This document shows, in pieces, positions 2,855 to 49,116 of a stretch of 51,990 bases of DNA. How positions within the stretch are numbered: the first letter of the stretch is position 1; the number at the start of each line of letters is the position of its first letter. The stretch is from NCBI GenBank assembly GCA_001773135.1, contig MEVX01000008.1:91992-143981 (forward strand), read 5' to 3'. This stretch comes from a candidate division WWE3 bacterium RIFOXYB1_FULL_43_24. GTDB taxonomy: Bacteria; Patescibacteriota; WWE3; UBA101185; UBA10185. The notes under the pieces are model-generated. The model was not told the origin of the DNA, did not search any database, and saw only the letters and a program-made list of their open reading frames with translations. The position numbers and the translations under genes were made by a program.

Positions 2855-2893
2855 ATGGTGAAGAATGGGAAACGGACTTACTTATTGTTTTGA

Positions 2894-3136: not shown

Positions 3137-3240
3137 AAATTAATTTTACATAAACTTGGGACGAAGTAAAGTTACCTATATGTTGTTACGTTGGGTTTTT
3201 ATAATAAGAAAAGTTATTTAACGTACGTGCGGGTGTAATA

Positions 3241-3315: not shown

Positions 3316-3379
3316 TCAAAAACTACAACATTATACACAACTGCTTAGTATATTGGAATAATCGGATGGTTACAATAAA

Positions 3380-3784
3380 TTATAATTTCAACCCCGCCAA
3401 TATCTCGTTTGCTGTGCTCTCGACGCTGTTTCCGGCGGTTATATAGCGTAAATCGCGGCTATCCGGGGTATTTTCTAACCCATCTAAAACGAATAACCTT
3501 TTCTTGCCAAGAACTCCGGACAAAGCTTTTTCTACCTCCAAACCCTTACTTGGCACAGGACTTGTAACATATGCAATGAAAGCATCGCTTTTGAGCATGT
3601 TACCCACGATAGCCGGAAAGGTTTTCCAAAGTGGTAGGGAACCTTGCCAATTCTGGATATCGCGGCCGAGTATAAAAGTTCGGTGTCCTGCTTTCTCTAA
3701 GCACGATGAGAATTCTAGCAGCTTCTCGATGAGGGCCTTCTTATCCGTAACGTTTGTATATTTGTAACCTATATAAATACGCAT
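3380..3784 (-). CDS. Nucleoside 2-deoxyribosyltransferase-like protein (tentative)
   Basis: 134 aa. MRIYIGYKY N-terminus and a SKGLEVEKA segment resemble the small Rossmann-like deoxyribosyltransferase-like fold. Weak call. Confidence 0.3.
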   Translation of the reverse strand: MRIYIGYKYTNVTDKKALIEKLLEFSSCLEKAGHRTFILGRDIQNWQGSLPLWKTFPAIVGNMLKSDAFIAYVTSPVPSKGLEVEKALSGVLGKKRLFVLDGLENTPDSRDLRYITAGNSVESTANEILAGLKL

Positions 3785-3830
3785 GTCCTACAATACTAGC
3801 ACTTTTGTGTGCGGGTTTCCTGCCAGGAGC

Positions 3831-5239: not shown

Positions 5240-6748
5240 CTAATTTTGTGTGGGAGCTATTTTCCAGATCCTAGTAATAGCCCTATTTATTTTCTGATAA
5301 GAATAGATAAAATATCCCAGGATTTCCGAGTAGTATAAGTATCCTTGCCCCGCCTTAATTTTTGAGAGAACTTTCAAAGGTACAAGCACTATGTTCGGGA
5401 TTTGAAATTTCACATCGTAAAATTTTATCTTCATCAGCCAATCAATAATGCCTTTTGGTAAAAGAGAGATAAGTACGAACAGAAGCATAAACGCCGAAGT
5501 ATTTATTTGGGCGTTTTTGTTGTCGTACCAAGGTACAAGATTAAGTTTGCTCAAATCGTGTTGTCCTGTGTTTATAGCGGGAACATCCGCTTCAGAAATT
5601 GAACCGTGCTTAATTGCTGTTTGTATGATGTCTGTTCCGGGAAGATACATTAAACCCCAGAAATTAATAATTGTAGGACGGCACTCATTATATAAATTGA
5701 CGGCTTCTATCAAATGTTCTTTAGTTTCAGCCGGTAGGTTGAAGATGTGGTCGAAAGAAAATTGAAGGCTGTATTTCCTGCATAATTCTGAAACCTTTAA
5801 AATTTGTTCATTGGTTTCGTGACGGTTAAGAAAAGTTTTTCTATAATTTTCGTTTGCGGATTGAACGCCGAGCTTAAACCAAGTGCATCCGCCCTCTTTA
5901 AGAATTTTTACTGTTTCTTCGTTTACAAGTCTCGGGTGGAAGAAACAAGCGAAAGGAACATTTACCTTTTCTTTATACAAATCCATAAGTTTGCGGAGTC
6001 TTTCTATGTCTATTGCCAGTACATCGTCAGCAAACTCTACACGCGGATAGTGGTATTTTGCTAAATTCATTTCCAGCTCTCCGATTACGTTTTCAGGACT
6101 ACGGTGTCTGAATCTTTTTTGTCCGAGGTATAGTTTTTGGTAAACGTTGTTTGAGCAGTATGTACATGCGAAAGGACAACCGCGGCTTCCTACGGCTGTA
6201 TAGGCCATATTTCTTTTAATTGGGTCAAGCGGAGAGTTGTAAAAAAGATCTTTGTCGGGGTATGGCAGAGCGTCTAAATCGGTTTCTAAAGGCGCGGTAG
6301 GATTTTTAACTATCCCGCCGTCTTTTCTATACCATAATGACCTCGTTTTTGTTATATCTCCGGCTTCGTGATTTTGTGCAAATTCTATGATAGTTTTGTC
6401 GGCTTCCCCAAGAAGTATCCCGTCAATAGCTTTCTCTTCCATTACCACGTCGGGCACAGAGTTAACATGAACACCTCCGAACAAAATGAAAAGCTCTGGA
6501 TAATTTTCTTTGATTAGTTTTGCTTTGGCCAAAGACCACGGGAATTGAAAAGAGAATGGTGAAAAACATGCAAAGTCAGGTTTATATTTTTCAATTTTCT
6601 TTATGATAGCTTGGTTTTCTGCTTGTAGGTTGGATCCTAGTGGAAAGAACGCAAGTTCCACGGAGTGTCCTACGCTTTTCAGTGCAGCAGAGATGTACTC
6701 AACGCCTATATTTTCGTTTTCGTGTTGTACGAATAAAAACTTCAGCAC
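5240..6748 (-). CDS. B12-binding-domain radical SAM protein
   Basis: N-terminal Rossmann-like B12-binding region, then GSRGCPFACTYCSN (CxxxCxxC). GTG start. Confidence 0.75.
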   Translation of the reverse strand: MLKFLFVQHENENIGVEYISAALKSVGHSVELAFFPLGSNLQAENQAIIKKIEKYKPDFACFSPFSFQFPWSLAKAKLIKENYPELFILFGGVHVNSVPDVVMEEKAIDGILLGEADKTIIEFAQNHEAGDITKTRSLWYRKDGGIVKNPTAPLETDLDALPYPDKDLFYNSPLDPIKRNMAYTAVGSRGCPFACTYCSNNVYQKLYLGQKRFRHRSPENVIGELEMNLAKYHYPRVEFADDVLAIDIERLRKLMDLYKEKVNVPFACFFHPRLVNEETVKILKEGGCTWFKLGVQSANENYRKTFLNRHETNEQILKVSELCRKYSLQFSFDHIFNLPAETKEHLIEAVNLYNECRPTIINFWGLMYLPGTDIIQTAIKHGSISEADVPAINTGQHDLSKLNLVPWYDNKNAQINTSAFMLLFVLISLLPKGIIDWLMKIKFYDVKFQIPNIVLVPLKVLSKIKAGQGYLYYSEILGYFIYSYQKINRAITRIWKIAPTQN

Positions 6749-6818
6749 TCGAGCAATTATACATAATTTTGATCTATATATGTTGGTGGAGGGGCAATAA
6801 GGTTATGTGGTGGATTTT

Positions 6819-6841
6819 TTTCTGGTGACCCCACGGGGAAT
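6819..6841 (-). repeat. Orphan copy of the tRNA-Glu 3' end (T-loop remainder, T-stem, acceptor 3' strand, CCA and 4 nt of flank)
   Basis: TTTCTGGTGACCCCACGGGGAAT at 6819-6841 is identical to 6968-6990. Confidence 0.9.
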
Positions 6842-6843
6842 AA

Positions 6844-6887
6844 GCAAAGCTTCCATTAGAGCTATAGTTCGCTTTGCTCTCTATAGC
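6844..6887 (-). ncRNA. Possible pseudoknotted structured element inside the tRNA-Glu-associated insert
   Basis: Two interleaved perfect 7-bp complements: GCAAAGC (6844-6850) with GCTTTGC (6871-6877), and GCTATAG (6861-6867) with CTATAGC (6881-6887). Confidence 0.3.
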
Positions 6888-6971
6888 ATCTAAAGTCGAA
6901 CCGCTTCGCGGTACATTCCAACGGTGAATACACAAAAATTTGCTCGTCACAAATTGTGCCGATCAAATTTC

Positions 6972-7046
6972 TGGTGACCCCACGGGGAATCGAACCCCGA
7001 TTACCGGGATGAAAACCCGGCGTCCTAACCGTTAGACGATGGGGCC
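6972..7046 (-). tRNA. tRNA-Glu (anticodon TTC)
   Basis: Reverse complement: GGCCCCA acceptor, GTCTAACGGTTAGGAC D-arm, CCGGG-TTTTCAT-CCCGG anticodon arm, CGGGGTTCGATTCCCCG T-arm, CCA. Confidence 0.9.
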
Positions 7047-7185
7047 AAGGTTTACAGGGCAAACATCCCCGCCACAAACACATGGCACAACGGTATATTA
7101 TCAACAAAACCCTTACTTTTGCAAGAAAACAGCGGGTAAGCTGCACCGGCTCCATGCCCGCAAAATAGTGGTAAAATGAGTCGAA

Positions 7186-8607
7186 ATGGCCATACTAACC
7201 ACTATTTATCTATACATGTACACCTTTTTTGCTGCGCTTTTACCCGGGGCAAGCTATAACGAGGGTATGTTGGGCCAGCCCCAAACATTTTTTCCAAGCC
7301 AGATTGTGCAGCAAACGGATAAGGCCATAAGCTCTCTTCTTTACAGAGGGTTGTTTAAATATGATATTTACGGGGCAACAGTACCAGATTTAGCTGAAAC
7401 GTGGCAAGTTTCGGACGACGGTCTTGTTTACACTATTAAGCTAAAAGACAACCAATACTGGACCAACGGTAAAAAGATAAATTCTGATGACTTAATATAC
7501 ACGTCCTTCAAGGTTACGGATCTCTCTGGAGTTGCGACAGATAAAGTTGATGATTTGACCGTAAGATACACTCTTCCTAACGAGTACTCCCCGTTCTTAA
7601 GTTTACTTACCGTAGGTATTATGCCTATGAACGCCGAAGAAAATAATACTCCTTTGTCTCCTGTAACGAGCGGTGACTTTAGGATAGCCCGGGTAGAAAA
7701 ATCAGGTAAATATATAAGACAGATAACTTTGGTGTCCCCAAATAATAAATACGATATTCAAAAAATAAGCTTCAGATATTATTCGAACGAAGATGAGATT
7801 GTGACTGCGGCTAAGTTGGGGGAAATCAATGGCTACCTCTTGTCTGAAAAGAAATCCCCCGAAAATTTTTATAACTATGAATATCCGGTTCAGGGAATTT
7901 ACTATGCTTTATTCTTTAATATTAGAAACGAAAAGCTTGCGGACGTTGATTTTAGGCAGAAGCTGGAAAAGGTAATACCTTTGGAAAGTTTTACAGCCGG
8001 AAAAGGTATTAGAGTTCAGGGACCGATTAGCCGAAGTATTTTTACGGATTTGGAGCTCGAATTTGACCGTTACGACGAGCTTTTTTCTGAGGACTTGGGC
8101 GACGCACGTCTGACAATAAGAGTTCCGGATATTGAAACTCATGTAATTTTGGCAAAACAAATCGCGTCAGTTTGGAGAGAGAAGTTAGATATAGAAGTGA
8201 AAGTAGAGCCTATCGCTTCCAACGATATCGTTCCGCGTATTATAGAACCACGCGACTTTGAGGTTTTATTGTTCGGGCAGGAGGTTGGGCGAGACCCGGA
8301 TAGATATGTTTTATGGCATTCTGCGCAGAAAAACCCCCCGGGGTTGAACTTTTCCGGGTTTGACCAGGTTAGAGCCGACAGGGCTTTAGAAGAAGGTAGA
8401 AAAGAGCTGGACAACGAGAAAAGGATTATTCACTATAATGAGTTTCAGAAGGTTATTGTAGAGCAAGTTCCCGCAGTCTTTTTGTACCACCCGTTTACCA
8501 ACTTTTACGTCTCCAAGTACATAGAGGGTGTGGGGGAGAAATATACCTTTACTTACGCGGACAGATTCCTGGACTTTGAGAACTGGAGGTATTTGAGGAC
8601 GAATTAG
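7186..8607 (+). CDS. Family-5 (peptide/nickel type) extracellular solute-binding protein
   Basis: N-terminal hydrophobic anchor. Overall resemblance to OppA/DppA-type SBPs (WQVSDDGLVYTIKLKDNQYWTNGKKINSDD). Confidence 0.55.
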   Translation: MAILTTIYLYMYTFFAALLPGASYNEGMLGQPQTFFPSQIVQQTDKAISSLLYRGLFKYDIYGATVPDLAETWQVSDDGLVYTIKLKDNQYWTNGKKINSDDLIYTSFKVTDLSGVATDKVDDLTVRYTLPNEYSPFLSLLTVGIMPMNAEENNTPLSPVTSGDFRIARVEKSGKYIRQITLVSPNNKYDIQKISFRYYSNEDEIVTAAKLGEINGYLLSEKKSPENFYNYEYPVQGIYYALFFNIRNEKLADVDFRQKLEKVIPLESFTAGKGIRVQGPISRSIFTDLELEFDRYDELFSEDLGDARLTIRVPDIETHVILAKQIASVWREKLDIEVKVEPIASNDIVPRIIEPRDFEVLLFGQEVGRDPDRYVLWHSAQKNPPGLNFSGFDQVRADRALEEGRKELDNEKRIIHYNEFQKVIVEQVPAVFLYHPFTNFYVSKYIEGVGEKYTFTYADRFLDFENWRYLRTN

Positions 8608-8937: not shown

Positions 8938-10239
8938 ATGTACACACGATTAAGTGCACCATTGGATGTGCAATGGGAGCTTACGCCTTGGTGCACATAT
9001 AACTGTGTGCACTGTTACAACTATTGGCGTAGGGACGAACGACCAATGCGTGTTCTTACAGAAGATCAGCTGGTAGTACGTAGAAAGACTGCCAAAGAGC
9101 TTCTTGAGAACAAGGTTTTTCATGTGACACTGACTGGAGGTGAGCCGCTTGGCGTAATTGAGCAGGTAATGCCTGAACTTCGCCAACTCGCATCAGCAGG
9201 TATACAAATGAGCATCAACACTAACCTAGCCCTGATGACCACGGAGATGGGTAAATTGTTGAAAGAGTTGGGTATTCGTTCAATTCTTACATCCTTGATG
9301 TCAGCAGACGAAATACTCAACGATGAGATCGCTCAACAAAGAGGTGCCTTTAGGCGGACTATAGAGGGTATCAAGGTAGCGGTATCAATGGGACTCCGAG
9401 TGTCGGTGAATATGGTTGTGTCTCAGAAAAACTTTGACACCATCTACGATACTGGAAAACTTGCATACTCACTTGGTGCCAAAGCATTCTGTGCAACCAA
9501 GGTGTCAAAACCCTCAAACTGCGAAGACTTCACAGGCTTTCCTCTTAGCAGAGAGCAGCTTGGGAGTATGTTCCATGAGCTTATCCGGATAAGGAAAGCA
9601 TTTGGAATTGAAGTCGCCTCACTGGAGCACTATCCTGCTTGTGTATTCCCAAATACCGAAACAAGAACAATGTTTGGTAATAGAAATTGTTCGGCCGCGA
9701 AAACAAGCTGTACGATAGGGTTTGATGGGAACATACGGCCATGCTCGCACGCTCCTATGTCCTACGGTAATGTAGCAGAACAAGGATTAAGCGTTGCCTG
9801 GATAGGTATGGACGCATGGCGAGATGATAGCCTTGTACCATCTGTATGTAAGCTTACGTGCGGTGAGTATCCTGGCAAGTGCGGTGGCGGTTGCAGAATT
9901 GAGTCTCTTAATGTTCACCAGGGTGTAGGTGGCAGCGACCCTTATAGCCTTGAGGCAGCGCCAGCAGCAAAGCGAGCAGTAGCAAAGCTCAAGCTCTTAG
10001 ATCCCGCCGTGATAGTACAACTACAACCAAAGGTACGATTTCGTAAAGAGAATTTTGGGTTCATAGCCTACAGAAGTTCAACCAACTGGGTAGCTATGGA
10101 TTCAACGCTTTATGGTATAGTCGTACCGTCCAAACCAGTATCGGTCACTGATGTGGCGACCGCATATCAATCTTCTGAAGATGATGCCCTGGAAACGCTG
10201 AGCATTTTGTCAGCAAAAGGCATTGTCCAAATAATCTGA
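8938..10239 (+). CDS. Radical SAM / SPASM-domain peptide maturase with a C-terminal PqqD-like (RRE-like) tail
   Basis: CTYNCVHC (CxxxCxxC) at residues 19-26. Auxiliary-cluster Cys motifs CSAAKTSC..RPC and CKLTCGEYPGKCGGGC. The ~90-aa tail (KVRFRKENFGFIAY...) resembles PqqD family. RBS GGAGG. Confidence 0.8.
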   Translation: MYTRLSAPLDVQWELTPWCTYNCVHCYNYWRRDERPMRVLTEDQLVVRRKTAKELLENKVFHVTLTGGEPLGVIEQVMPELRQLASAGIQMSINTNLALMTTEMGKLLKELGIRSILTSLMSADEILNDEIAQQRGAFRRTIEGIKVAVSMGLRVSVNMVVSQKNFDTIYDTGKLAYSLGAKAFCATKVSKPSNCEDFTGFPLSREQLGSMFHELIRIRKAFGIEVASLEHYPACVFPNTETRTMFGNRNCSAAKTSCTIGFDGNIRPCSHAPMSYGNVAEQGLSVAWIGMDAWRDDSLVPSVCKLTCGEYPGKCGGGCRIESLNVHQGVGGSDPYSLEAAPAAKRAVAKLKLLDPAVIVQLQPKVRFRKENFGFIAYRSSTNWVAMDSTLYGIVVPSKPVSVTDVATAYQSSEDDALETLSILSAKGIVQII

Positions 10240-12325: not shown

Positions 12326-13678
12326 ATGGCAGACTTGACTTATCAGGGGCTGTTATTGGACAAGGCAGGTCACACTAAGTTAAACCTTTCAAATGGCGAA
12401 GCTGTGATCTATAGTCCTTACGGCTCCGGCAAAGCGTTTGTTCTATCAGGTGTTGCATTAAAGGTGTACAAGCTTCTTGAAAGCGGGTTAACTGTTGAGG
12501 AAATAATCAATACAGCGCAATCGCCGGAATGGGAAGAAACCGTGCAGGCAGTGATTGCGTACTTCACAGATCGGGGACTTTTTGCAGACAAGAGAAAAAC
12601 GAAAACTTTCTCTGCAGCCAAAAAGCCGAAGTCAATTGCACTTTGGATCCATGTTACGGATACCTGTAATCTGCGTTGCGATTATTGCTACGTTCACAAG
12701 GGTAAACGGCGCTTATCCAAAGAAGCCTGTGATGTTATTGTCAGCGCATTAAAGGCGGATACGGAAACCTTTCAGATAAAGGAGGTTGAGCTGAAGTTTG
12801 CAGGAGGCGAACCGCTCGTTGATATAGAGATTGTTTCCTATTTCATGGACCAAGCAAGAGCGGCGTTGCTACCACTTGGTGTAAAAATCCATTTGGCGAT
12901 AATCACCAACGGTACCTTAGTGACTGATGAAAAAGCGAAGTTTCTCAAGAACGAAGCGTTCTCGGTCATGGTATCCCTGGACGGACTTGGAGATTTCAAC
13001 AACGCCAGGAAATATGCAGATGGACGAACTAGTGTGCATCAGGTGCTGGAAGGTATTGAATGCCTGCTTAACGCTGGTGTTAGGCCTACAATACTCACAA
13101 CGGTATCGGATACGAATGTTGAGGGTTTGTGGGATCTAATGATCTATGTGAGAGAGAAGGGTCTAACGCTAAGCCTAAGCCCATCCAGAGACTACGAGCA
13201 AGAATTGGGTTTGAAGATGAATGTAGAGCATATTTCCAATGAAATGGTGGTGTTTCTACACAAAGTATGTCTTTTACCCGATAGCGACCTGCCGCGACTG
13301 AGTTTCAATGGAATTCAATTTACCGGCGGTAGAACTCATATCTGTGGGGGTGGCTCAAATTACTTTGCAGTGGATCCCGATGCAGGCGTCTGCTTTTGTC
13401 AGATGACTGTAGATAAGCCAATGGGTTTGGTCACAGACAAAGACAGCATATTGAGTTTCGCCACTAGTCAAGATACGATCCTGGAAGGAGGTGAGTGCTT
13501 AACCTGTATTTGGAAGAATGTCTGTTGTGGAGGATGTGCAGTTTTAGCGATGAACGCAGGTACTTTTGGGAAACCATCAGTAATGTGCGATTTAATGAAA
13601 CGCATCCTACCGTCAATCCTTCTATATGAAGGCCGAAAGATCCGCAGATTGAAAGAGAGGAAAACATGCCTACCTTGA
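12326..13678 (+). CDS. Radical SAM / SPASM-domain peptide maturase with an N-terminal PqqD-like (RRE-like) domain
   Basis: CNLRCDYC (CxxxCxxC). C-terminal Cys clusters CGGGSNYF..CFC and CLTCIWKNVCCGGC. The ~100-aa N-terminal extension (VIYSPYGSGKAFVLSGVALKVYKLLESGLTVEEII) resembles PqqD family. RBS AAGGAGAG. Confidence 0.8.
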   Translation: MADLTYQGLLLDKAGHTKLNLSNGEAVIYSPYGSGKAFVLSGVALKVYKLLESGLTVEEIINTAQSPEWEETVQAVIAYFTDRGLFADKRKTKTFSAAKKPKSIALWIHVTDTCNLRCDYCYVHKGKRRLSKEACDVIVSALKADTETFQIKEVELKFAGGEPLVDIEIVSYFMDQARAALLPLGVKIHLAIITNGTLVTDEKAKFLKNEAFSVMVSLDGLGDFNNARKYADGRTSVHQVLEGIECLLNAGVRPTILTTVSDTNVEGLWDLMIYVREKGLTLSLSPSRDYEQELGLKMNVEHISNEMVVFLHKVCLLPDSDLPRLSFNGIQFTGGRTHICGGGSNYFAVDPDAGVCFCQMTVDKPMGLVTDKDSILSFATSQDTILEGGECLTCIWKNVCCGGCAVLAMNAGTFGKPSVMCDLMKRILPSILLYEGRKIRRLKERKTCLP

Positions 13679-41604: not shown

Positions 41605-42782
41605 TTTACATTCCTGAAACAATTAAAAGCGCGTTTTCAGCCCTGGCTCTAAATAAAGTAAGGACTTTTCTTACCATGTTGGGCGTTATTATAGGGGTTT
41701 TTTCTGTAGTTGCTTTGGTTGCTGTAGTTCAGGGTTTTCAGAACTATATTACCGATCAATTTAGTGCGTTGGGGTCAAATTTGATTCTGGTCACGCCCAA
41801 AGTTGGTGAAGGTCAGGACCCATCCCGATCTTTTATGGGGAATAAACTCAGTCTTAAAAATGTTGACACCATAAATTTGTATCTGGGAGATAAGGTTAGT
41901 GCGGTCACACCTTCAATAAGGATAGCCAAAACTGCCGAATACAAAACGAAAACATATGCTTCCACAGTTGTAGGTGGTAACTACCAGTCATACTCAGTAT
42001 ATGGTTTAGAAACCGAATACGGATCCTACTACACAAAATTTGATGATTCGAAAAAAGCTAACGTTGTTTTTATAAGCGCGGACGTCAAAGAAGAATTGTT
42101 CGGGGAACGTAACCCCGTGGGAGAAGAAATTAAAATAGAAAACGTTTCTTTCGAAATATTAGGTGTAGCAAAACCAAAAGGAGGAACTTTTGACGACAGG
42201 ATATTCATGCCTGATACTACTTTGAAGCAAGCCTTTAATGTGGATGTTTTATCCAGTATCGCCGTGAAAATTAAGGAAAATCAGGATATTGATGAGTTAA
42301 TGCACGAGATAAAGCTGGCGTTGTTGAAAGATATAAAAGCGGACGATTTTTCTGTTGTAACTCAAAAGGACATTTTGTCCTCTATAGACCAGATATTAGG
42401 TGTGCTAGCTTCCGCACTTGCGGCAGTTGCCGGAATATCTTTATTGGTGGGAGGCATAGGTATCATGAATATAATGTTAGTTTCGGTTACAGAACGCACA
42501 CAGGAAATCGGTTTGAGAAAAGCTTTGGGGGCAACTTCGAAAAATATCGGAAGACAGTTTTTAACTGAAGCCATTGTCATAAGTGTGGGTGGAGGCATGG
42601 TAGGCTTATTCTTAGGCTATCTGTCAACGCTAGCGGTTAAAAGTTTTTTACGAGCTACCATACCGTGGTGGGCTATTGCTCTCGCAATGAGCTTCTCAAT
42701 TATAGTAGGTGTTGTGTTCGGAACCTATCCCGCATTAAGTGCGAGCAAAAAGGATCCCATCGAAGCTCTTAGGTTTGAATAA
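41601..42782 (+). CDS. ABC transporter permease (MacB/FtsX type)
   Basis: MacB periplasmic domain, and FtsX-like C-terminal TM bundle with RTQEIGLRKALGA. Confidence 0.85.
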   Translation: MIYIPETIKSAFSALALNKVRTFLTMLGVIIGVFSVVALVAVVQGFQNYITDQFSALGSNLILVTPKVGEGQDPSRSFMGNKLSLKNVDTINLYLGDKVSAVTPSIRIAKTAEYKTKTYASTVVGGNYQSYSVYGLETEYGSYYTKFDDSKKANVVFISADVKEELFGERNPVGEEIKIENVSFEILGVAKPKGGTFDDRIFMPDTTLKQAFNVDVLSSIAVKIKENQDIDELMHEIKLALLKDIKADDFSVVTQKDILSSIDQILGVLASALAAVAGISLLVGGIGIMNIMLVSVTERTQEIGLRKALGATSKNIGRQFLTEAIVISVGGGMVGLFLGYLSTLAVKSFLRATIPWWAIALAMSFSIIVGVVFGTYPALSASKKDPIEALRFE

Positions 42783-42783
42783 G

Positions 42784-43227
42784 CTACTGAGAAATCTTCT
42801 CGTAGACTAATAAATAACTTTTTCCGTCTACAAGCTCGATGCTGTCCATTTTAGATGTAATGTCGTTGTCCCCGTCAAAAATTTTCCAGCTCATTGTATC
42901 GGTAGCTTTGATGTTGTTAACGTGATCGAGTTGGCTACCGTAAGAATATGCTGTACGGTCAAACGTAAAATCAGTGTTGTTTTCTCTGACCTGCAGCAAT
43001 AAATCGGATACGGTTTTGTTAGTCTTAGACTCTTGTTTATATGTTTTTGTGAAAGTAGGAGTTTTAACAGTAAGCGTAACATCTACTCTCTTTACTTCAA
43101 CTGACTTTTCATCTATTTTGTCTTCAACTGAAACAGGAATGCCCTTTATAACTGACTTAACGTAAAAATAGGAAAATATTAGAAAAAGAATATAGAGTGG
43201 CAGTAATAATTTGTTCAACTTATTCAT
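42784..43227 (-). CDS. Small secreted protein (DUF4430-like, tentative)
   Basis: Signal/anchor helix. C-terminal WKIFDGDNDI...LVDGKSYLLVY resembles DUF4430. Confidence 0.4.
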   Translation of the reverse strand: MNKLNKLLLPLYILFLIFSYFYVKSVIKGIPVSVEDKIDEKSVEVKRVDVTLTVKTPTFTKTYKQESKTNKTVSDLLLQVRENNTDFTFDRTAYSYGSQLDHVNNIKATDTMSWKIFDGDNDITSKMDSIELVDGKSYLLVYEKISQ

Positions 43228-43287
43228 ACGCCTATTTTAACAGATTGCGGTGGTATAATTTACAAGTAATCTAAGGGTTCCCGCCGT

Positions 43288-43364
43288 GCCTCCATAGCTC
43301 AGCGGATCAGAGCACTCGTCTTCGGAACGAGGGGTCGGGGGTTCGAATCCCTCTGGGGGCGCCA
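43288..43364 (+). tRNA. tRNA-Arg (anticodon TCG)
   Basis: GCCTCCA acceptor, CTCGT-CTTCGGA-ACGAG anticodon arm, GGGGGTTCGAATCCCTC T-arm, TGGGGGC, G, CCA. Confidence 0.9.
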
Positions 43365-43412
43365 TCGAATTGCGGCGGGCTAAGTCCCGACGTAATTTGA
43401 TAGAGTTTTCTA

Positions 43413-43488
43413 GGATTCGAATGCCGGAGCGAACGAAGGTGAGCGAGGCGGGGTCGACGGGCGTGTCAGCAGACACGAACCGGTGACC
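43413..43488 (+). ncRNA. Conserved 76-nt structured core of a tRNA-3'-end-associated element (copy 1)
   Basis: Aligns colinearly without gaps to 46205-46280 with 65/76 identities by hand count. Predicted helices: 43429-43434/43439-43444, 43452-43460/43480-43488, 43463-43467/43472-43476. Four pairs covary between the two copies. Confidence 0.6.
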
Positions 43489-43508
43489 GAATCCCTCTGG
43501 GGGCGCCA
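43488..43508 (+). repeat. Orphan copy of the tRNA-Arg 3' end
   Basis: CGAATCCCTCTGGGGGCGCCA is identical to 43344-43364. Confidence 0.9.
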
Positions 43509-43599
43509 AGAAATTTCGACAGGGATATTACATCCTACTTAATTTGAAACTGCCTGTCCTTTCATATACAATCCCGACTACTAGAAAAGGAGAAGCAAA

Positions 43600-43803
43600 A
43601 TGCCCGGGAGCATGATTTTTGTAGAACAAGTTATTAGAACTTTGCTGAAAGAAGAGGGCCCGAAAGACAAGCAAACTCTTGTACGGGAAGTCGCCGATCA
43701 GATGAATATCAGTGAGCTGGATAGTTATATAGAAGCTACGTTGGATAACATGATCGGTACAGGCAAAATTGACTTGGACGAGAACGGGAAAGTGCATATC
43801 TAA
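43600..43803 (+). CDS. Small hypothetical protein (67 aa)
   Basis: ATG after AAAGGAGAAG. I prefer it over the overlapping minus-strand ORF 43528-43878, which lacks an RBS. Confidence 0.5.
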   Translation: MPGSMIFVEQVIRTLLKEEGPKDKQTLVREVADQMNISELDSYIEATLDNMIGTGKIDLDENGKVHI

Positions 43804-43895
43804 ATTCTTTATAGACGGGCATCCGGAAAACATTAAAATCCGATGTCCGTTTTCTTTTCCTTGCTTTAACCGCCCCATAAAATATAATTTAGGCT

Positions 43896-44396
43896 ATGAA
43901 GCTAAAAATAGCCGATTCGTTAATAGCGGGTTTTGGGTTTGGTTCCACATCGGGAGTTATAACTACGCTCGGTATGATAGTGGGGCTTTATTCTTCATCT
44001 TCTGATAGGCTGGCCATCATAGGGGGAATATTTACCGTCAGTGTTGCAGACGCTCTATCGGACGCTTTGGGTGAGCATATTTCGGAGGAATCAAAAGAGA
44101 ATCCACTGGACGCAGATGTCAGGAACATAACAATTTCCACATTTTTAACAAAACTGATAGTAGGTTTGTCTTTCGTAATTCCCTTCGTTTCCTTACCTGT
44201 AGCACACGCTGTAGTAGTCAGTATTATATATGCCTCTCTCGTGTTGATATTGTTGAGTTTAAGGATTGCGAAGAGGACGGGTCAAAACAGGCTTGAGGTT
44301 GTGGCCGAGCATCTGCTGGTCGGATTTGCGGTAGTTATTATTACTTTCTTCTTAGGAAAATGGGTAGAAACCGCTTTTTCTAACAACACTGTGTAG
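43896..44396 (+). CDS. Small integral membrane protein (VIT1/CCC1-like, tentative)
   Basis: Four to five hydrophobic segments, Gly-rich TM1 (GFGFGSTSGVITTLGMIVGL). Confidence 0.4.
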   Translation: MKLKIADSLIAGFGFGSTSGVITTLGMIVGLYSSSSDRLAIIGGIFTVSVADALSDALGEHISEESKENPLDADVRNITISTFLTKLIVGLSFVIPFVSLPVAHAVVVSIIYASLVLILLSLRIAKRTGQNRLEVVAEHLLVGFAVVIITFFLGKWVETAFSNNTV

Positions 44397-44412
44397 TATA
44401 ATTGTCGGGCTT

Positions 44413-44487
44413 GGGGACGTAGCTCAGTGGTAGAGCAACCGGCTCTTAACCGGTTTGTCGAGGGTTCGAATCCCTCCGTCCTCACCA
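44413..44487 (+). tRNA. tRNA-Lys (anticodon CTT)
   Basis: GGGGACG acceptor, ACCGG-CTCTTAA-CCGGT anticodon arm, GAGGGTTCGAATCCCTC T-arm, CCA. Confidence 0.9.
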
Positions 44488-44573
44488 TGAAAGATGTTCG
44501 CTTTCCGGGTTGTAAAAAATACTGAAATTGCAGAACATTGGGCAAAAGATATTGTTGCTAAAGTCTAGTTTTC

Positions 44574-44617
44574 ATAAAAAAAGGCTCACAAGTCTGCGTT
44601 CAGCAAAAATGTGAGCC
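44574..44617 (-). terminator. Terminator of the minus-strand gene 44625-45044
   Basis: GGCTCACA ... TGTGAGCC 8-bp stem. The plus-strand A-run gives a minus-strand T-run. Confidence 0.55.
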
Positions 44618-44624
44618 GGCGAGT

Positions 44625-45044
44625 CTAAATAACCCCAGAGAACAAAGCAAGATCTTTATTAACTGCATCTAACTCCTTCAGGAGGCACTCTTGTTTACGG
44701 GCCAGTACGTCTTTTGCCAGTAAACCCAGATGTCTGAGGAGTTTTTGAATATCCGGTTCTTTCGAAAAAACAGACGGATTAAACCCCTCGAATGTGAAGT
44801 CTTCCTGACCGATTTCAACATGACCTTTAATCGTTGAGCACAGAGTGTGGGGTCCTACATCGGTTACCTTAAAAGAGATTTCGAGGTAGCAAACACGGTA
44901 TTTTTCGTACTCCACATTACCCCAATTTTCCAGAATGACAACCGGCCAGTTTTCACGAACTATATGAAGCCGTGGAAACTTTTCATTCAAACCAACGGCA
45001 ATAAGCAGAGCATCTTGCTTTTCTAACGTTCTTGTAACACGCAT
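44625..45044 (-). CDS. Hypothetical protein
   Basis: 139-aa ORF preceded by AGGAGGAGAA. Confidence 0.45.
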   Translation of the reverse strand: MRVTRTLEKQDALLIAVGLNEKFPRLHIVRENWPVVILENWGNVEYEKYRVCYLEISFKVTDVGPHTLCSTIKGHVEIGQEDFTFEGFNPSVFSKEPDIQKLLRHLGLLAKDVLARKQECLLKELDAVNKDLALFSGVI

Positions 45045-45230
45045 TTTCTCCTCCTTATTCTGATTTTTCCCGATAATACCACATTAAGCCGGGATTATCA
45101 TAAAAAAATGGTAAGAAACGATTTAACTTAAACTGTCCCATTAAATTATTGATTTAGAACGTTCTGAGTATTAATATGCCCTCATAAGTGGGTCTGCTAA
45201 AAATATCTTTTATTAAGAAAGGGGAGCGAG

Positions 45231-45407
45231 ATGATATTTTGTAAGGGAACAAATACGGAGCAGATATCTGGCAGAAGCAGTAACCGTGATTGGCAGGTAA
45301 ATACTAATTTCATAAACGGGAGCTTCAACGTTACGAGCAAGTGTCCGAACGCTCCGAATGAACGTCGCCGCAGACGCCGTCACTCGAGAAAAGAACATAA
45401 ACAGTAG
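45231..45407 (+). CDS. 58-aa small protein with a poly-Arg C-terminus (below the ORF-track cutoff)
   Basis: AAAGGGGAG lies 5 nt before the ATG. Hand translation: MIFCKGTNTEQISGRSSNRDWQVNTNFINGSFNVTSKCPNAPNERRRRRRHSRKEHKQ. A strong terminator follows directly. Confidence 0.4.
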   Translation: MIFCKGTNTEQISGRSSNRDWQVNTNFINGSFNVTSKCPNAPNERRRRRRHSRKEHKQ

Positions 45408-45418
45408 AGTCCACTGTT

Positions 45419-45465
45419 AGGCCCAAAGCGTATTTTTAAAAAGCTTTGGGTCTTTTCTTTTTCTG
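45419..45465 (+). terminator. Rho-independent terminator
   Basis: AGGCCCAAAGC ... GCTTTGGGTCT stem followed by TTTCTTTTTC. Confidence 0.7.
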
Positions 45466-45505
45466 TTGATAAAGGAGCAAATACTATATAATCTGATTAT
45501 TAAGA

Positions 45506-45590
45506 GCCAGAGTGGCGAAATTGGCAGACGCGCAGTCTTCAGAAGGCTGTATCGCAAGGTGTGTGGGTTCGAGTCCCACCTCTGGCACCA
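45506..45590 (+). tRNA. tRNA-Leu (anticodon CAG)
   Basis: GCCAGAG acceptor, CAGTC-TTCAGAA-GGCTG anticodon arm, long variable arm, GTGGGTTCGAGTCCCAC T-arm, CCA. Confidence 0.9.
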
Positions 45591-45611
45591 GTAATTGATT
45601 TAAAAAACAAG

Positions 45612-46070
45612 ATGAAAAATATAAAAATTGCTTTAGTCACGGTCTTGGCTTTTGTTGCTTTGTTTATTTCTTTTTACAATTTCTTCTATCTCAGGAATCT
45701 TGAGAACAAGATAAAAGACATCGAGAGTATTCTTCCCGAAAGTAATTTGGAGGCTACAGAAGATATTATTCCCGCGGAAGATCCGGTTGCCTTAGAAACT
45801 TTTGTCGGCACTCTCACAAAAGACGAGATACCTGCTGAGCTGGAATTAGGCGATTATTGGTACTGGTTATATTTTGATGAACCCTACCTCCTTGAAGAAA
45901 ACGCACGTGGCATGCCTATGAACGTAGACAAGCTACAGGTCAACCTTCCTGCGCAGGAAATAGAGGGAATGGACGTGTTTGACGGCATGCACGTAGAGAT
46001 AAAAGGTAGCATAACTTGGGGTTACGCAGAGTCAAGTGTTATCCAAGCCGAAGAAATAGTGATTAAATAG
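45612..46070 (+). CDS. Membrane-anchored hypothetical protein
   Basis: I chose the internal ATG at 45612 (MKNIKIALVTVLAF...) because the listed start at 45561 lies inside tRNA-Leu. Confidence 0.5.
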   Translation: MKNIKIALVTVLAFVALFISFYNFFYLRNLENKIKDIESILPESNLEATEDIIPAEDPVALETFVGTLTKDEIPAELELGDYWYWLYFDEPYLLEENARGMPMNVDKLQVNLPAQEIEGMDVFDGMHVEIKGSITWGYAESSVIQAEEIVIK

Positions 46071-46098
46071 CGCTTTGTTTGGTATAATTTCTCTGTTT

Positions 46099-46185
46099 GG
46101 GCGAGTGGCGGAATTGGTATACGCGCAACGTTGAGGTCGTTGTCGGGTAAAACCGGTGCAGGTTCAAGTCCTGTCTCGCCCACCA
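46099..46185 (+). tRNA. tRNA-Leu (anticodon GAG)
   Basis: GGGCGAG acceptor, CAACG-TTGAGGT-CGTTG anticodon arm, long variable arm, GCAGGTTCAAGTCCTGT T-arm, CCA. Confidence 0.9.
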
Positions 46186-46204
46186 ATACACTTTTTTGAC
46201 CGGC

Positions 46205-46280
46205 GGACTTGAATGCCGGACTGAGCGAAGGCGAAGGAGGCGGGGTCGACTGGCGTGTCACCAGACACGAACAGGTGACC
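46205..46280 (+). ncRNA. Conserved 76-nt structured core of a tRNA-3'-end-associated element (copy 2)
   Basis: Colinear with 43413-43488. Predicted helices: 46221-46226/46231-46236, 46244-46252/46272-46280, 46255-46259/46264-46268. Confidence 0.6.
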
Positions 46281-46281
46281 T

Positions 46282-46300
46282 AGTCCTGTCTCGCCCACCA
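46282..46300 (+). repeat. Orphan copy of the tRNA-Leu(GAG) 3' end
   Basis: AGTCCTGTCTCGCCCACCA is identical to 46167-46185. Confidence 0.9.
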
Positions 46301-46312
46301 TATAAAAATAAC

Positions 46313-47977
46313 ATGAGTTCACTACGCAAAATCTCGATTCTGATTTTTAGCTTATTTATTTTCTTCGCAGCCCGTGTATCTGCCCAGGAATTAATCCAGG
46401 CCTTACAAATCGACTCTGTTGTTAACAAAGACGGCACCGTTAGGATTACTGAAACCATGCTGTACGATTTCGGTAATGAACAGCGCCACGGAATTTTCAG
46501 ATATATTCCTTACAAAAAAGTAAACCAGGATGGCAAGTCCTATGTTATGGATATAACAGTTGAGGGGGTTTCGGATGAAAAAGGAAACGGTTATAGATAT
46601 TCTGTTACAAAATCCGGAAACGATTTAACTATAAAAATAGGAGACCCCGATAAAACTGTCTCGGGGCAGCACATATATATAATATCCTACAGGGTTAACG
46701 GGAGTCTGACATACTTTGATACGTACGACGAGTTCTACTGGAACGGTATCGGAAGCGGATGGGACATACCGATAAATCTTGTACGCGCTGAGGTTAATTT
46801 TGGTCAAAGTTTTGGAGAAGGGGAGTTGGACGGAGTATGTTACACGGGTCTGGAGGGAAGTACTAATAAAGAGTGTGCCGTTGATAAATTACACAACGGC
46901 GTAACCTTCACAACCAACAAGGTTAACCCCGGGGAAGCCTTTACTTTTGCAGTTAAATTTCCTAAAGGCTACGCAGCAGTTTTAGAGCCCGCAGAAGACA
47001 AACCTTCTACCGTCCAATTGATTTTAATGGCCTTGGCGGGCATTGTAGCGGCTAGTTTTTATGTCTTTTTACCTATTTTCTTGTTAATTAAGTGGCTCCG
47101 TGAAAAAAAGCATGTCCGGGACACTGCGAGAATAGTGGCGGCGTGGTTCTCTCCTCCGAAAACTGCTGACGGAGAAGCTCTGACACCGGTAGAGACTGTA
47201 ATAACCGCTGACGTGACCGCCGGAAATAAAGCCGTCCCCGCCACAATAATTTCTTTGGCACAGAGGGGCTACATTAAAATCACACAAAAAGAAAAGAAAG
47301 AATTCATTTTTTCAAAAACCGAAAAACCTGAGGATGATTTGTTAAGACAGTATGAAAAAGATATCTACACTGCTATATTTTCCGAAGATGCTATTGAGGT
47401 GTCTACCAAAAAATTAAGTAAAAATGAAAAATTCGGGGTGGCAGGTACTTCACTCGCAAGTGAGGCCGCTGATTATTTAAAAAAGACCGGTGTTTTCAAA
47501 TCTAATCCTGTTAATACGTCTGGGGGCTATCTGGCATTATCAATAATGTCTTTTTTCACAGGGAATATATTTTTAGCGGCGGTGTCCTTTATATTGGGAA
47601 GAAAAAGTCCTAAAAGACCTGATTCGGGGATACAAACTTACTCCGAAGCCGTGTCACTGAAAAACTTTTTAGTCAGTCAGGACCCCCAGTTTGATTTTCA
47701 GGCGCAGGAAATGATGTTTTTTGAGAAACTTTTACCTTATGCTACAGCATTCGGAGTAGAAGACGTCTGGATTAAACGGTTTAAGGACCTATTTAACACC
47801 AACCCCGAATGGTACCGGGGAGATGATTTTACCCGGCTGGTAGTGCTGAACTCGATAGTTAACAGCTCCTATCACAGTGCTAGCGCTTCATCCAGAAGCT
47901 CTTCGGGCTTCGGTAGCGGATTTTCAGGAGGCTCTAGTGGCGGTGGGGGCGGTGGCGGGGGAGGAGGTAGCTGGTAA
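46313..47977 (+). CDS. DUF2207-like membrane protein with a poly-Gly C-terminal tail
   Basis: Start at MSSLRKISILIFSLFIFFAARVSAQE (signal peptide), mid-protein TM helices, and an SSGFGSGFSGGSSGGGGGGGGGGSW tail typical of DUF2207. The upstream part of the listed ORF covers the tRNA-linked element. Confidence 0.65.
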   Translation: MSSLRKISILIFSLFIFFAARVSAQELIQALQIDSVVNKDGTVRITETMLYDFGNEQRHGIFRYIPYKKVNQDGKSYVMDITVEGVSDEKGNGYRYSVTKSGNDLTIKIGDPDKTVSGQHIYIISYRVNGSLTYFDTYDEFYWNGIGSGWDIPINLVRAEVNFGQSFGEGELDGVCYTGLEGSTNKECAVDKLHNGVTFTTNKVNPGEAFTFAVKFPKGYAAVLEPAEDKPSTVQLILMALAGIVAASFYVFLPIFLLIKWLREKKHVRDTARIVAAWFSPPKTADGEALTPVETVITADVTAGNKAVPATIISLAQRGYIKITQKEKKEFIFSKTEKPEDDLLRQYEKDIYTAIFSEDAIEVSTKKLSKNEKFGVAGTSLASEAADYLKKTGVFKSNPVNTSGGYLALSIMSFFTGNIFLAAVSFILGRKSPKRPDSGIQTYSEAVSLKNFLVSQDPQFDFQAQEMMFFEKLLPYATAFGVEDVWIKRFKDLFNTNPEWYRGDDFTRLVVLNSIVNSSYHSASASSRSSSGFGSGFSGGSSGGGGGGGGGGSW

Positions 47978-48047
47978 ACAGTTAGTGATGACGTTTAGGC
48001 CGTAGTTGTTGATTTTTAGACACCCTCCTTTATAATAACGTTTGCAC

Positions 48048-48123
<76 letters not shown>

Positions 48124-48147
48124 GAAAATTTGCTAGTTGCTTTGCAT

Positions 48148-48223
48148 GGGGCGGTAGCCAAGTTGGTCAAGGCACCGGTCTGAAAAACCGGCTATGTGGG
48201 TTCGATCCCCACCCTCCCCACCA
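48148..48223 (+). tRNA. tRNA-Phe (anticodon GAA)
   Basis: GGGGCGG acceptor, CCGGT-CTGAAAA-ACCGG anticodon arm, GTGGGTTCGATCCCCAC T-arm, CCA. One C-U mismatch in the acceptor stem (position 5 with 68). Confidence 0.85.
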
Positions 48224-48309
48224 TGAAAAATTTAAAAAACGCTTTATTTAAACCCCACTTTTTAGAGCACTCCCTTCCTACAGTACGTAAAAAAGATTAA
48301 ACTAACTAT

Positions 48310-49116
48310 ATGAAAAACTCACTAATGATTGTTTTCTTCGCTTTTTTGCTCATTATTATCGGAGGTGGTCTATTTGTAATACTTAACAAAGACCCAACCG
48401 GTACAGCTGCCAACACGTTTAATACTGTTGCCGAAAAAGTTACCAAACCTTTACCTGCAACCTCCGAGGGTAGCGAAACAGAGGGAAGCATCGTTCCCGA
48501 AGGTTGGAGAGTCTACTCAAACGCCGATTTAAAGTTTTCTATAAACTACCCTAAAACCGTCTACAGTCAGCAAGGATCCTGCGAAAAACAAGTGGAAGGA
48601 CAAAACACTTCTTACAGATTTAAAACCGCTCAGGTGCCCGTAAAAATATTCGAAGACACCGATGGTATTTTTATATACCCCGAATTTAGAAATGAATTAT
48701 CGGGCGCAAAAACAGTTGATAACGTTTCTTATTTTAGCTCGTGCGAAAAAGTAACTACAACCTTAAGCTGGCTGAAGAGTGAGACGAAATCCTGGCATAT
48801 TATTGCAAAGTCAGTACCGACTAAAGAAGATCTGGAAACATTTGTTCAAACAAAATTCGGGGTCGGTTGTTCCGTCGGCACAATGACAAGCACTGCAGCT
48901 AATAATAAGGTGTACGACGTAAAAATATTGGGAGACGGGCTGGAACTTGGAGAGTCCCTTTGCGGAATAAACTACATATACGTACTTAAATACGTACCCG
49001 AAGCAAAAATGGTTTACACATACGATTTAGGCCAAGCATACACGTTCGCAAAAGATACGGGAGGGTCAGAATATTACGACGAAGAAATGAACAATAGTTT
49101 CCAGCCTATATTCTAA
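48310..49116 (+). CDS. Secreted/membrane-anchored hypothetical protein
   Basis: 268-aa ORF with an N-terminal hydrophobic helix. Confidence 0.45.
   Translation: MKNSLMIVFFAFLLIIIGGGLFVILNKDPTGTAANTFNTVAEKVTKPLPATSEGSETEGSIVPEGWRVYSNADLKFSINYPKTVYSQQGSCEKQVEGQNTSYRFKTAQVPVKIFEDTDGIFIYPEFRNELSGAKTVDNVSYFSSCEKVTTTLSWLKSETKSWHIIAKSVPTKEDLETFVQTKFGVGCSVGTMTSTAANNKVYDVKILGDGLELGESLCGINYIYVLKYVPEAKMVYTYDLGQAYTFAKDTGGSEYYDEEMNNSFQPIF

Follow-up and report, generated by a model that had tools for sequence, protein, structure and literature searches.

Two transfer RNA (tRNA) genes of candidate division WWE3 bacterium RIFOXYB1_FULL_43_24, tRNA-Arg(TCG) and tRNA-Leu(GAG), are each followed by a short structured insert and then by a perfect copy of the gene's own 3' end. 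Both lie in a stretch of 51,990 nucleotides (nt) of contig MEVX01000008.1 (assembly GCA_001773135.1, positions 91,992 to 143,981 of the forward strand), the whole of which was analysed and is called the window here. The inserts are members of a family found behind tRNA and transfer-messenger RNA (tmRNA) genes, in which a predicted three-way junction unites two conserved hairpins, the copied 3' end and a guide strand complementary to the T-loop of the adjacent gene. The reading that we favour, at a probability of roughly 0.45, is that of a protein-less, non-autonomous element of ~95-125 bp without an open reading frame (ORF), which, in the candidate phyla radiation (CPR)/Patescibacteria, would specialise in the T-loops of tRNA and tmRNA genes, be directed there by its guide, and leave the tRNA intact through a target duplication of ~21 bp.

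Two tRNA loci with a shared core

ARAGORN identifies ten tRNAs in the whole window. Behind tRNA-Arg(TCG), a 123-nt insert precedes a perfect copy of the tRNA's final 21 nt; behind tRNA-Leu(GAG), a 96-nt insert precedes a perfect copy of the final 19 nt. The direct repeats located by repeat search are CGAATCCCTCTGGGGGCGCCA, at 43344-43364 and 43488-43508, and AGTCCTGTCTCGCCCACCA, at 46167-46185 and 46282-46300. The copy inside the tRNA is called B1 and the downstream copy B2, and the order of the unit is complete tRNA, hairpin P0 or a short linker, spacer, guide, a core of hairpins P2 and P3, and B2 from C56. The features of the two loci, with the evidence for each, are as follows.

43288..43364, + strand: complete tRNA-Arg(TCG), CCA encoded (ARAGORN; Rfam tRNA, 65.1 bits)
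43344-43364, + strand: B1, the last 21 nt of tRNA-Arg, C56-A76 (repeat search)
43365..43400, + strand: P0, a predicted 36-nt hairpin from the first base after the tRNA-Arg CCA (minimum-free-energy fold; linker survey)
43401..43412, + strand: spacer of the Arg element, unconserved in the family (segment identity ~0.5, the unrelated baseline; right-anchored listing)
43413..43421, + strand: Arg guide GGATTCGAA, reverse complement of T54-C62 TTCGAATCC of tRNA-Arg (inverted repeat; fold; family statistics)
43423..43449, + strand: Arg P2 hairpin, type B, with tandem G.A/A.G, a GAAG loop and conserved CGAGG on the 3' side (alignment A2)
43452..43488, + strand: Arg P3, a long irregular hairpin, GGUCGAC...GUGUC-AGCA-GACAC...GGUGACC (fold, family alignment)
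43488..43508, + strand: Arg B2, a perfect 21-nt copy of tRNA-Arg C56-A76 (repeat search)
43509..43545, + strand: P0-like relic after Arg B2 (83% over 36 nt in the repeat search; L018 sequence)
46099..46185, + strand: complete tRNA-Leu(GAG) (ARAGORN; Rfam tRNA)
46167-46185, + strand: B1, the last 19 nt of tRNA-Leu(GAG), A58-A76 (repeat search)
46186..46204, + strand: Leu short linker without P0, of the short-linker class (linker survey)
46205..46213, + strand: Leu guide GGACTTGAA, reverse complement of T54-C62 TTCAAGTCC of tRNA-Leu(GAG) (sequence; guide statistics)
46215..46241, + strand: Leu P2 hairpin (core comparison, family alignment)
46244..46280, + strand: Leu P3 hairpin (family alignment; match of 92 bits to covariance model R1)
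46282..46300, + strand: Leu B2, a perfect 19-nt copy of the tRNA-Leu 3' end, with its junction at 57/58 (repeat search)

In the predicted fold of the Arg locus, the 5' strand of helix P1 (43413-43418) pairs with 43489-43494 of B2, leaving the other 14 nt of the copy unpaired; GAA(U) forms the conserved junction J1/2, and the last C of P3, at 43488, doubles as C56 of the downstream copy. At the Leu locus, 46205-46209 pair with 46282-46286, and the guide base that faces position 57 is complementary to the tRNA copy but not to B2. The relic at 43509-43545 is homologous to the P0 behind tRNA-Arg in the syntenic WWE3 genome L018 and is probably the remnant of a lost second tandem unit.

The cores align without gaps at 84% over 82 nt (43413-43494 versus 46205-46286). 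An earlier note, made from the letters of the window, had delimited the two tRNAs and their repeats, counted 65 identities in 76 nt of core and pointed to four compensatory double changes. Its coordinates and its 21-nt and 19-nt repeats proved exact by ARAGORN and repeat search, and position-by-position reading bore out the count, the differences falling at core positions 4, 6, 17, 18, 21, 28, 31, 32, 47, 57 and 69. All four compensatory pairs are present as it gave them (17:32 G-C to C-G, 18:31 C-G to U-A, 21:28 A-U to G-C and 47:69 G-C to U-A), and position 57 does lie in a loop, that of P3. The helices that it proposed are supported by the family alignment; what it missed is the closing helix P1 formed by the guide. 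The core begins with 9 nt that are reverse-complementary to T54-C62 of the upstream tRNA, and this accounts for the differences at positions 4 and 6: these bases lie opposite tRNA positions 59 and 57 and vary together with them (A59 and G57 in Arg; G59 and A57 in Leu). Also left out were the P0 hairpin behind the CCA, the tmRNA targets and the other core families, including one at tRNA-Glu in the window. A 34-nt core pattern matches twice in the window versus 0 expected (100 shuffles), and the predicted folds of insert plus copy have z-scores of -2.6 and -3.0 at the two loci.

A TATAAT box stands 10-25 nt 5' of each of four tRNAs of the window (43250-43290, 44395-44412, 45480-45505 and 46075-46098), so that these four look like separate single-gene transcription units.

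A three-way junction that covaries

The guide/copy helix P1 is predicted to form a three-way junction with P2 and P3, leaving the acceptor strand and CCA as a free 3' tail. Covariation was assessed in an alignment of 46 sequences (A2), with P1, the base of P2 and P3 as its structure. In this alignment 90% of cells are paired versus 78% in shuffles, and both-sided changes occur in 14 of the 23 pairs. The covariation score is 0.359, versus 0.133 ± 0.008 in shuffles (0/500 reach 0.359) and 0.04-0.09 with slid partners. Pairs 17-48, 20-47, 21-46 and 25-43 (A2 numbering) covary in P2, and all five pairs of the inner helix of P3 show both-sided changes. The outer P3 pairs are invariant in A2, which is uninformative because they belonged to the search pattern; divergent matches of covariance model R1 retain GGGGU(C/A)G...GU(G/U)ACC. 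By these results the fold is under selection, as the earlier note had argued from its two copies, and the covariation excludes a reading of the inserts as decaying attachment (att) scars.

The cells that are not Watson-Crick are mostly tandem G.A/A.G: 54 versus 2 C.U in the four helix pairs where they cluster. Since the opposite strand would hold destabilising C.U pairs, it is the tRNA-sense strand that folds, as RNA or as single-stranded DNA.

Family size and distribution

Two degenerate P3 patterns were scanned through one genome per species and through Joint Genome Institute (JGI) metagenomes, and covariance model R1 was built and then run on the fetched loci, a biased sample in that its members were chosen for holding the element. 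The patterns gave 112 distinct copies; R1 gave 61 and 103 matches in the fetched loci (>160 in total), some of them to divergent copies whose P3 is much longer. The family numbers more than 150 copies in CPR genomes. All full-anatomy matches fall in candidate division WWE3, Saccharibacteria, Woese-, Yanofsky-, Pacei-, Moran- or Adlerbacteria or unclassified Patescibacteria, and pattern matches in Actinomycetota, Pseudomonadota and other groups are chance occurrences in GC-rich DNA without the element's flanking features. The family is confined to CPR/Patescibacteria genomes, in which 4-10 copies are kept per roughly 1-Mb genome. Viral contigs, scanned with two patterns, and GenBank phages and PLSDB plasmids, searched with blastn, gave 0 matches, and a phage, plasmid or viral origin was dropped on that account.

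Searches of Rfam 15 returned solely tRNAs and sub-threshold noise, for 42000-48500 at E ≤ 10 as for the whole window at gathering thresholds, and nothing beyond these in five other loci holding 12 copies (E ≤ 1). The unmatched families include hammerhead, twister, pistol, hatchet, hepatitis delta virus (HDV), hairpin, group I/II introns, IS605-orfB, HEARO and tRNA-like RNAs. A full-text literature search yielded no account of such an element, and the impression that the core is no known RNA family agrees with the Rfam result. By hand comparison, neither hammerhead (CUGANGA/GAAA), hairpin-ribozyme loop A and group II domain V/VI motifs nor k-turn, box C/D and integron GTTRRRY motifs fit, and no claim is made for any of them.

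The T-loop junction and the guide

A tRNA 3' end lies at most 110 nt 5' of the conserved P3 block in 81 of the 92 copies with a tRNA in the locus, and the gap from CCA to guide start is 12-56 nt. The targets comprise at least 27 tRNA isoacceptors and also tmRNA genes (L033, L070, L107, L197 and L204). The position of the junction, just after TTC of the T-loop in the two window loci as first described, is a family trait: the downstream copy starts at C56 in 89/89 scorable loci, and the preceding base never matches. A few copies, the window's Leu included, are joined at 57/58 instead. B2 is identical to the tRNA 3' end in 69 copies. The identity run is 21 nt long in 37 copies, reaches 22 nt in 14 others and 23 nt in a further 6, the pattern expected if identity stops at A76 and is longer by chance alone. 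Three tRNA genes have no encoded CCA, and there B2 repeats the genomic trailer to position 74-76, not CCA; B2 therefore derives from DNA or the primary transcript and not from mature tRNA, which rules out a retro-origin with added CCA. Many copies have a decayed B2 beside an intact tRNA, and copies with a decayed tail retain an intact core. B2 follows the substitutions of the tRNA at tRNA-Arg(TCG) of the window and at its orthologues in L054 and L077.

Across the family the guide measures 9-12 nt and is complementary to T54-C62/65 of its own tRNA. Class-i guides (50 copies) are fully complementary to positions 57-62 and match the variable position 59 in 98%, versus 46% with shuffled partners. 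In class-ii guides (35 copies), G57-A58 face G-A as tandem sheared pairs, and complementarity reaches the T-stem, at 0.60-0.80 for positions 63-65 versus 0.42-0.57 with shuffled partners. The GAA of the guide, complementary to T54-T55-C56, is invariant; T54-T55 are absent before B2, where GGTGAC stands. Target preference by C61-C62 or by amino acid showed no clear discrimination between the two sets, Ser, Arg and Leu being frequent in both.

Modules of the unit

P0 lies directly 3' of the CCA in two thirds of copies, the others having a hairpin-free linker of 12-20 nt. A P0-type hairpin follows 60 of 87 tRNAs with the repeat versus 33 of 137 without it, and P0 is sometimes near-identical at unrelated tRNAs, with one difference in ~45 nt between a tRNA-Ser and a tRNA-Leu locus. 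The window's own P0 was not flagged as a terminator in a consensus scan. The spacer between P0 and guide is unconserved across the family; the notion that it is a long inverted copy of B was abandoned on a weak signal (duplex energy -5.43 versus -4.89 kcal/mol with shuffled partners).

In genome MEWB01, cores behind Leu, Ile and Ser tRNAs are 94-99% identical, and their guides, linkers and B2 are wholly different. We read guide and B2 as belonging to the locus, derived from or adapted to the target, and the core as a shared module. Mean core identity is 0.83 within genomes versus 0.80 between them, with few near-identical pairs, which points to occasional gene conversion and not to general concerted evolution within genomes.

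Unrelated cores with the same plan

All fetched loci were also scanned, without reference to the core, for tRNAs with a copy of their own last 16 nt behind them. Such a 3'-end copy follows 91 of 237 distinct tRNA and tmRNA genes, 71 of the 91 with the main core, fractions that are biased upward because the loci were collected for holding the element. All 91 inserts are unannotated and unmatched in Rfam. About a dozen of the repeat-bearing genes carry unrelated structured cores, with a P0-like hairpin first and the junction at 57/58 or 58/59, and one of these lies in the window (generic scan, sequence):

6972-7046, - strand: tRNA-Glu(TTC)
6971-6842, - strand: element behind tRNA-Glu, with a P0-like hairpin and an unrelated structured core
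6841-6823, - strand: 19-nt copy of the tRNA-Glu 3' end

This core also stands behind tRNA-Glu in L042, and the insert represents a second element family of the same architecture. Further unrelated cores were seen in L031/L131 and L027 (tRNA-Ser), L166 (tRNA-Cys, tRNA-Phe), L208 and L127 (tRNA-Ala), and L168 and L177 (tRNA-Arg). Some are in tandem with the main family; L031 runs tRNA-Ser, other core, 18-nt copy, P0, main core, 21-nt copy.

An empty site and tandem arrays

The window is syntenic with the WWE3 genome LCBB01000001. A comparison of orthologous loci in relatives, the check recommended at the outset, yielded one filled and one empty site: in the syntenic WWE3 locus L018 the tRNA-Arg element is present, and tRNA-Leu(GAG) has the orthologous DUF2207 gene immediately behind it. 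The block that L018 lacks there is exactly the 115 nt of linker, core and copy at 46186-46300 of the window. Tandem arrays occur in L016, L030, L053, L063, L095 and L155. Two of the arrays are informative, and in both the distal 3'-end copy is the more decayed (2 then 7 mismatches; 1 then 5), which fits the addition of new units next to the tRNA (n = 2).

Some loci depart from the usual order. Arrays of copy, P0, core and copy without an intact 5' part of the tRNA occur in L201 (- strand, ~8050-8420 in reversed coordinates) and in L053/L141, and in L148 a degenerate tRNA-Pro lies 5' of an intact downstream copy. L054 (- strand, reversed coordinates 5987-6144) holds a truncated element, guide and P2 alone, fused to a promoter and a complete tRNA-Lys(CTT), which occupies the place of P3 and the copy.

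A proposed guide-directed insertion element

Among the possibilities raised by the earlier note, the best supported after the survey of the family is that of a miniature element with T-loops as its target and a duplication of about 20 nt. Such an element would enter at the T-loop, with C56-A76 duplicated in the manner of a target-site duplication so that the tRNA gene stays intact. Its sense-strand fold, as read-through RNA or single-stranded DNA, would be recognised by a mobilising machinery whose enzyme would be supplied in trans, and the guide would select or align the target by base pairing, comparable to the guides of the insertion sequence (IS) IS608, the exon- and intron-binding sites (EBS/IBS) of group II introns and the bridge RNAs of IS110. 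Resident copies would be lost by B1 x B2 recombination, would grow into tandem arrays and would swap cores by gene conversion. We favour such an element because it accounts at once for a cognate guide and copy at every locus, a wide range of targets with tmRNA among them, competing core families, tandem arrays and a patchy distribution; we infer mobility, present or past, the origin of B2 as a target duplication and the reading of the T-loop by the guide.

Several observations weigh against it. The loci surveyed showed neither a transposition event nor an excised form, nor did they yield a mobilising protein, and we know of no transposition chemistry that routinely yields a 21-bp duplication from T-loop to gene end. 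The elements have no terminal inverted repeats. The empty site of L018 may reflect an insertion in the window's lineage or, equally, a precise deletion between the direct repeats. At positions that differ between B1 and B2, pairing of the guide is possible with the tRNA copy alone in 9 cells and with B2 alone in 5, which is not decisive. About half of the P0 hairpins, in long-class units, resemble intrinsic terminators, and no promoter is visible in the spacer, so that production of an RNA from the tRNA promoter is uncertain. Cores that are near-identical although their linkers and guides are unrelated are better explained by gene conversion than by recent transposition; core identity does not prove the latter, and there is no evidence of current activity. 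Finally, a host function is equally possible in view of a core very conserved across CPR phyla and 4-10 copies in genomes of ~1 Mb.

A more far-reaching proposition, which we regard as tentative and on the whole doubtful, is that the family represents either a new guided genetic unit, a protein-less mobile RNA or single-stranded DNA that programs its own T-loop insertion, or a small natural trans-acting ribozyme or splint with a spare C56-CCA. The former, if true, would mean a duplication as long as the guide-target hybrid; the latter would be nature's equivalent of the trans-splicing ribozymes made by engineering, in bacteria whose equipment for RNA repair is minimal.

Alternative readings

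The alternative that survives best, although we judge it unlikely, is a host-useful RNA, co-transcribed with the tRNA, that would use its guide and its spare 3' end to act on the cognate tRNA. It might, with the same small likelihood, be a ribozyme or splint that replaces or re-ligates a damaged C56-CCA segment, or a processing or decoy RNA. The order of guide, catalytic core and replacement 3' exon is that of engineered trans-splicing group I ribozymes. Such a role would suit the strong conservation of the core across CPR phyla, with invariant GAAU, CGAGG, GGGGUCG and GUGACC, and the retention of several copies per streamlined genome. It would suit a guide that spans the 55/56 junction, its GAA complementing a T54-T55-C56 whose T54-T55 belong to the tRNA and not to the sequence before B2, and a B2 that tracks tRNA substitutions at the three orthologous tRNA-Arg(TCG) loci; in short-linker copies, moreover, nothing stands between tRNA and element to block co-transcription. 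However, a minority of tRNAs carry the element and close relatives differ in which; the intact core of copies with a decayed tail means that some elements can do without the tail; half of the long-class units have a terminator-like P0; and no known ribozyme model matches. Several unrelated cores with the same architecture also suit competing selfish elements better than one host function.

Distinctly less probable is a mini integrative cassette, moved in trans by a tyrosine integrase/Xer acting on the folded strand, as with integron attC or the CTX phage, or by a large serine recombinase. B1 and B2 would then be the identity blocks of attL and attR, and P1 a folded mimic of the duplex T-loop site, an arrangement that we hold to be just as improbable. 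Integrase-type insertion has as its classical signature direct repeats that run from the T-loop to the 3' end of a tRNA or tmRNA gene, as Williams 2002 (Nucleic Acids Res.) is said to have described. Core families differ slightly in their T-loop junction, as different integrases do, and the P1 duplex reproduces the double-stranded tRNA-gene sequence at positions 56-62. Against these points, there is no ORF within the elements and no integrase inside any of the 160+ copies; on a change of target, an element with a B of its own would give chimeric tRNAs, yet B2 matches the local tRNA nearly everywhere; the strong conservation of a 60-nt three-way junction is left unexplained; and the viral, phage and plasmid collections gave no matches.

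A tRNA-targeting family of serine recombinases does exist in the same genomes and would suit such a cassette. In two loci alone, L068 and L030, is the gap between tRNA and core of kilobase (kb) scale. That of L068 holds, at 5381-7189 (+ strand), a gene for a 602-amino-acid large serine recombinase with Resolvase, Recombinase and Zn_ribbon_recom domains, and the genes of six homologues (L086-L091; family 44-79% identical) converge on and abut tRNA 3' ends (Lys, Leu, Glu, Val). These islands, however, join at the CCA or the discriminator; R1 finds no core at their far ends; and in L149/L068 and in L188 an island with a loose, tRNA-3'-like end, ...ATCCCACCA, sits between tRNA and P0. On these three grounds the island is a separate element inserted at the CCA end, and it was rejected as the mobiliser. 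The 2.9-kb gap of L030 (- strand, reversed coordinates ~1830-4610) contains one or more radical-SAM genes on the opposite strand and then the next P0, core and copy. A perfect 15-nt inverted T-arm copy, AAGAGGGAGTCGAAC, lies there 11 nt after a 3'-end copy; the locus may be an inversion between guide and T-loop, and it looks rearranged, so that it was not taken for an autonomous element. The possibility that the core is the conserved end of a larger integrase-bearing element, with the window's loci as remnants, is not borne out: kb-scale inserts occur in two loci, and the serine-recombinase island is independent.

A T-loop intervening sequence or long alternative tRNA 3' end, in which the tRNA body would pair with the distal copy B2, B1 to P3 would be an intron and the guide would align U55 with C56' in the manner of an internal guide sequence, is very improbable: the guide does complement a continuous 54-62 across the would-be splice junction and either 3'-end copy could complete the cloverleaf, but the complete, high-scoring tRNA 5' of the element means that splicing gains nothing, many copies have a decayed B2 beside an intact tRNA, the 60-nt core is far below the size of any self-splicing intron, no group I, group II or ribozyme model matches in Rfam 15, and the bulge-helix-bulge splicing endonuclease is, to our knowledge, not known in bacteria. 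The different contexts of C56 (GGTT before it in the tRNA, GGTGAC before B2) also brought to mind a Cas12/TnpB-like scaffold with a 3' guide, an idea only, set aside as P1 sequesters the would-be seed and no effector gene lies nearby.

Comparison with known systems

Each known family considered fails at least one defining feature tested. Closest in kind are the tRNA-targeting insertion elements that preserve the gene by 3'-end duplication. With the integrative elements of tRNA and tmRNA T-loops the present family shares its target genes, the gene-preserving repeat from T-loop to 3' end (here C56-A76, flanking the insert), possible tandem arrays and variable presence. It differs in being ~100 bp long without integrase or gene, the repeats of the window enclosing 96-123 nt and no recombinase gene, and in combining a locus-specific B2 and guide with a core shared among tRNAs; the attP of integrative elements has no counterpart to a conserved, covarying three-way junction with a target-complementary strand. 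The gene-less state, the internal guide and the conserved three-way junction are new features.

IS200/IS605 elements such as IS608, and the ORF-less palindrome-associated transposable elements (PATEs), are likewise strand-specific, with hairpin-rich ends and ORF-less derivatives. Barabas et al. 2008 reportedly found that the target and cleavage sites of IS608 are read by a short guide just 5' of the foot of a hairpin. The guide of the present elements, ending in GAAU, also lies just 5' of a hairpin, P2. Hairpins P0 and P2/P3 are present, P0 and P3 being unrelated to each other and P0 being absent from the short class. IS200/IS605 insertion makes no target duplication and uses guides of 4-5 nt, in contrast with a 21-nt direct repeat at nearly all copies and a guide of 9-12 nt here; no TnpA/TnpB gene was seen, and the Rfam IS605-orfB models are unmatched.

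The bridge and seek RNAs of IS110/IS1111 and the EBS/IBS of group II introns are structured non-coding RNAs with short, reprogrammable target-complementary segments, as is proposed here. Those systems carry a recombinase or reverse-transcriptase gene inside and make no long duplication, whereas the present unit is protein-less and its RNA end would repeat 21 nt of the target; no ORF was found in the element, and no Pfam domain of the DEDD/serine recombinases of IS110/IS1111 among the window proteins. A self-splicing intron would interrupt its host gene, and here an uninterrupted tRNA precedes every element.

Casposons make target duplications of 14-15 bp or more, some of them at tRNA 3' ends, and arrays of clustered regularly interspaced short palindromic repeats (CRISPR) duplicate a whole repeat and grow by units added beside a fixed leader. 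Such Cas1-type integration is comparable in its long duplication, its use of tRNA 3' ends and its leader-proximal growth. The present elements differ in having no terminal inverted repeats and no cas1 or polymerase gene, and in a conserved structured insert in place of variable spacers; the sequence between the repeats is one structured family, and no cas genes were found in the window. As for MITEs, the miniature transposable elements with inverted repeats, the unit ends TCGAATTGCGG.../...CCGGTGAC (Arg) and ATACACTTT.../...CAGGTGAC (Leu) are not inverted repeats, the sole inverted repeat is the internal and target-specific one of guide and B2, and the duplication measures 19-21 nt in place of a fixed 2-10 bp.

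The R2 element with its HDV-like ribozyme, short interspersed nuclear elements (SINEs) and trans-splicing ribozymes are similar in being embedded in, and co-transcribed with, a conserved structural RNA gene and in placing host-derived sequence in an RNA helix; trans-splicing ribozymes also share the order of guide, core and 3' segment. Here no reverse transcriptase or known ribozyme fold was detected, and B2 copies genomic sequence in CCA-less genes. Bacterial SINE-like elements are not known to us.

If mobile, the family would add a new type to the non-autonomous elements, one whose guide-target code can be read and reprogrammed and is aimed at the T-loop, the most conserved sequence in biology. 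It would offer a handle for finding the mobilising enzyme, be of interest for genome-insertion tools, and bear on how streamlined CPR genomes tolerate mobile DNA. If its members are functional RNAs, they would form a new class acting on tRNAs. Either way, the family affects tRNA gene annotation, models of 3'-end processing and the att-site-based prediction of prophages and islands in CPR genomes, where partial tRNA copies will pass for island boundaries.

Other genes of the window

The window proteins are of a housekeeping kind and include HisRS, LeuRS, BipA, RelA/SpoT, TGT, DinB, MgsA and MacB. Three radical-SAM proteins, one with a B12-binding domain, are encoded within 9 kb among small ORFs, at 5240-6748 (- strand), 8938-10239 (+ strand) and 12326-13678 (+ strand), and this group may be a peptide-modification cluster.

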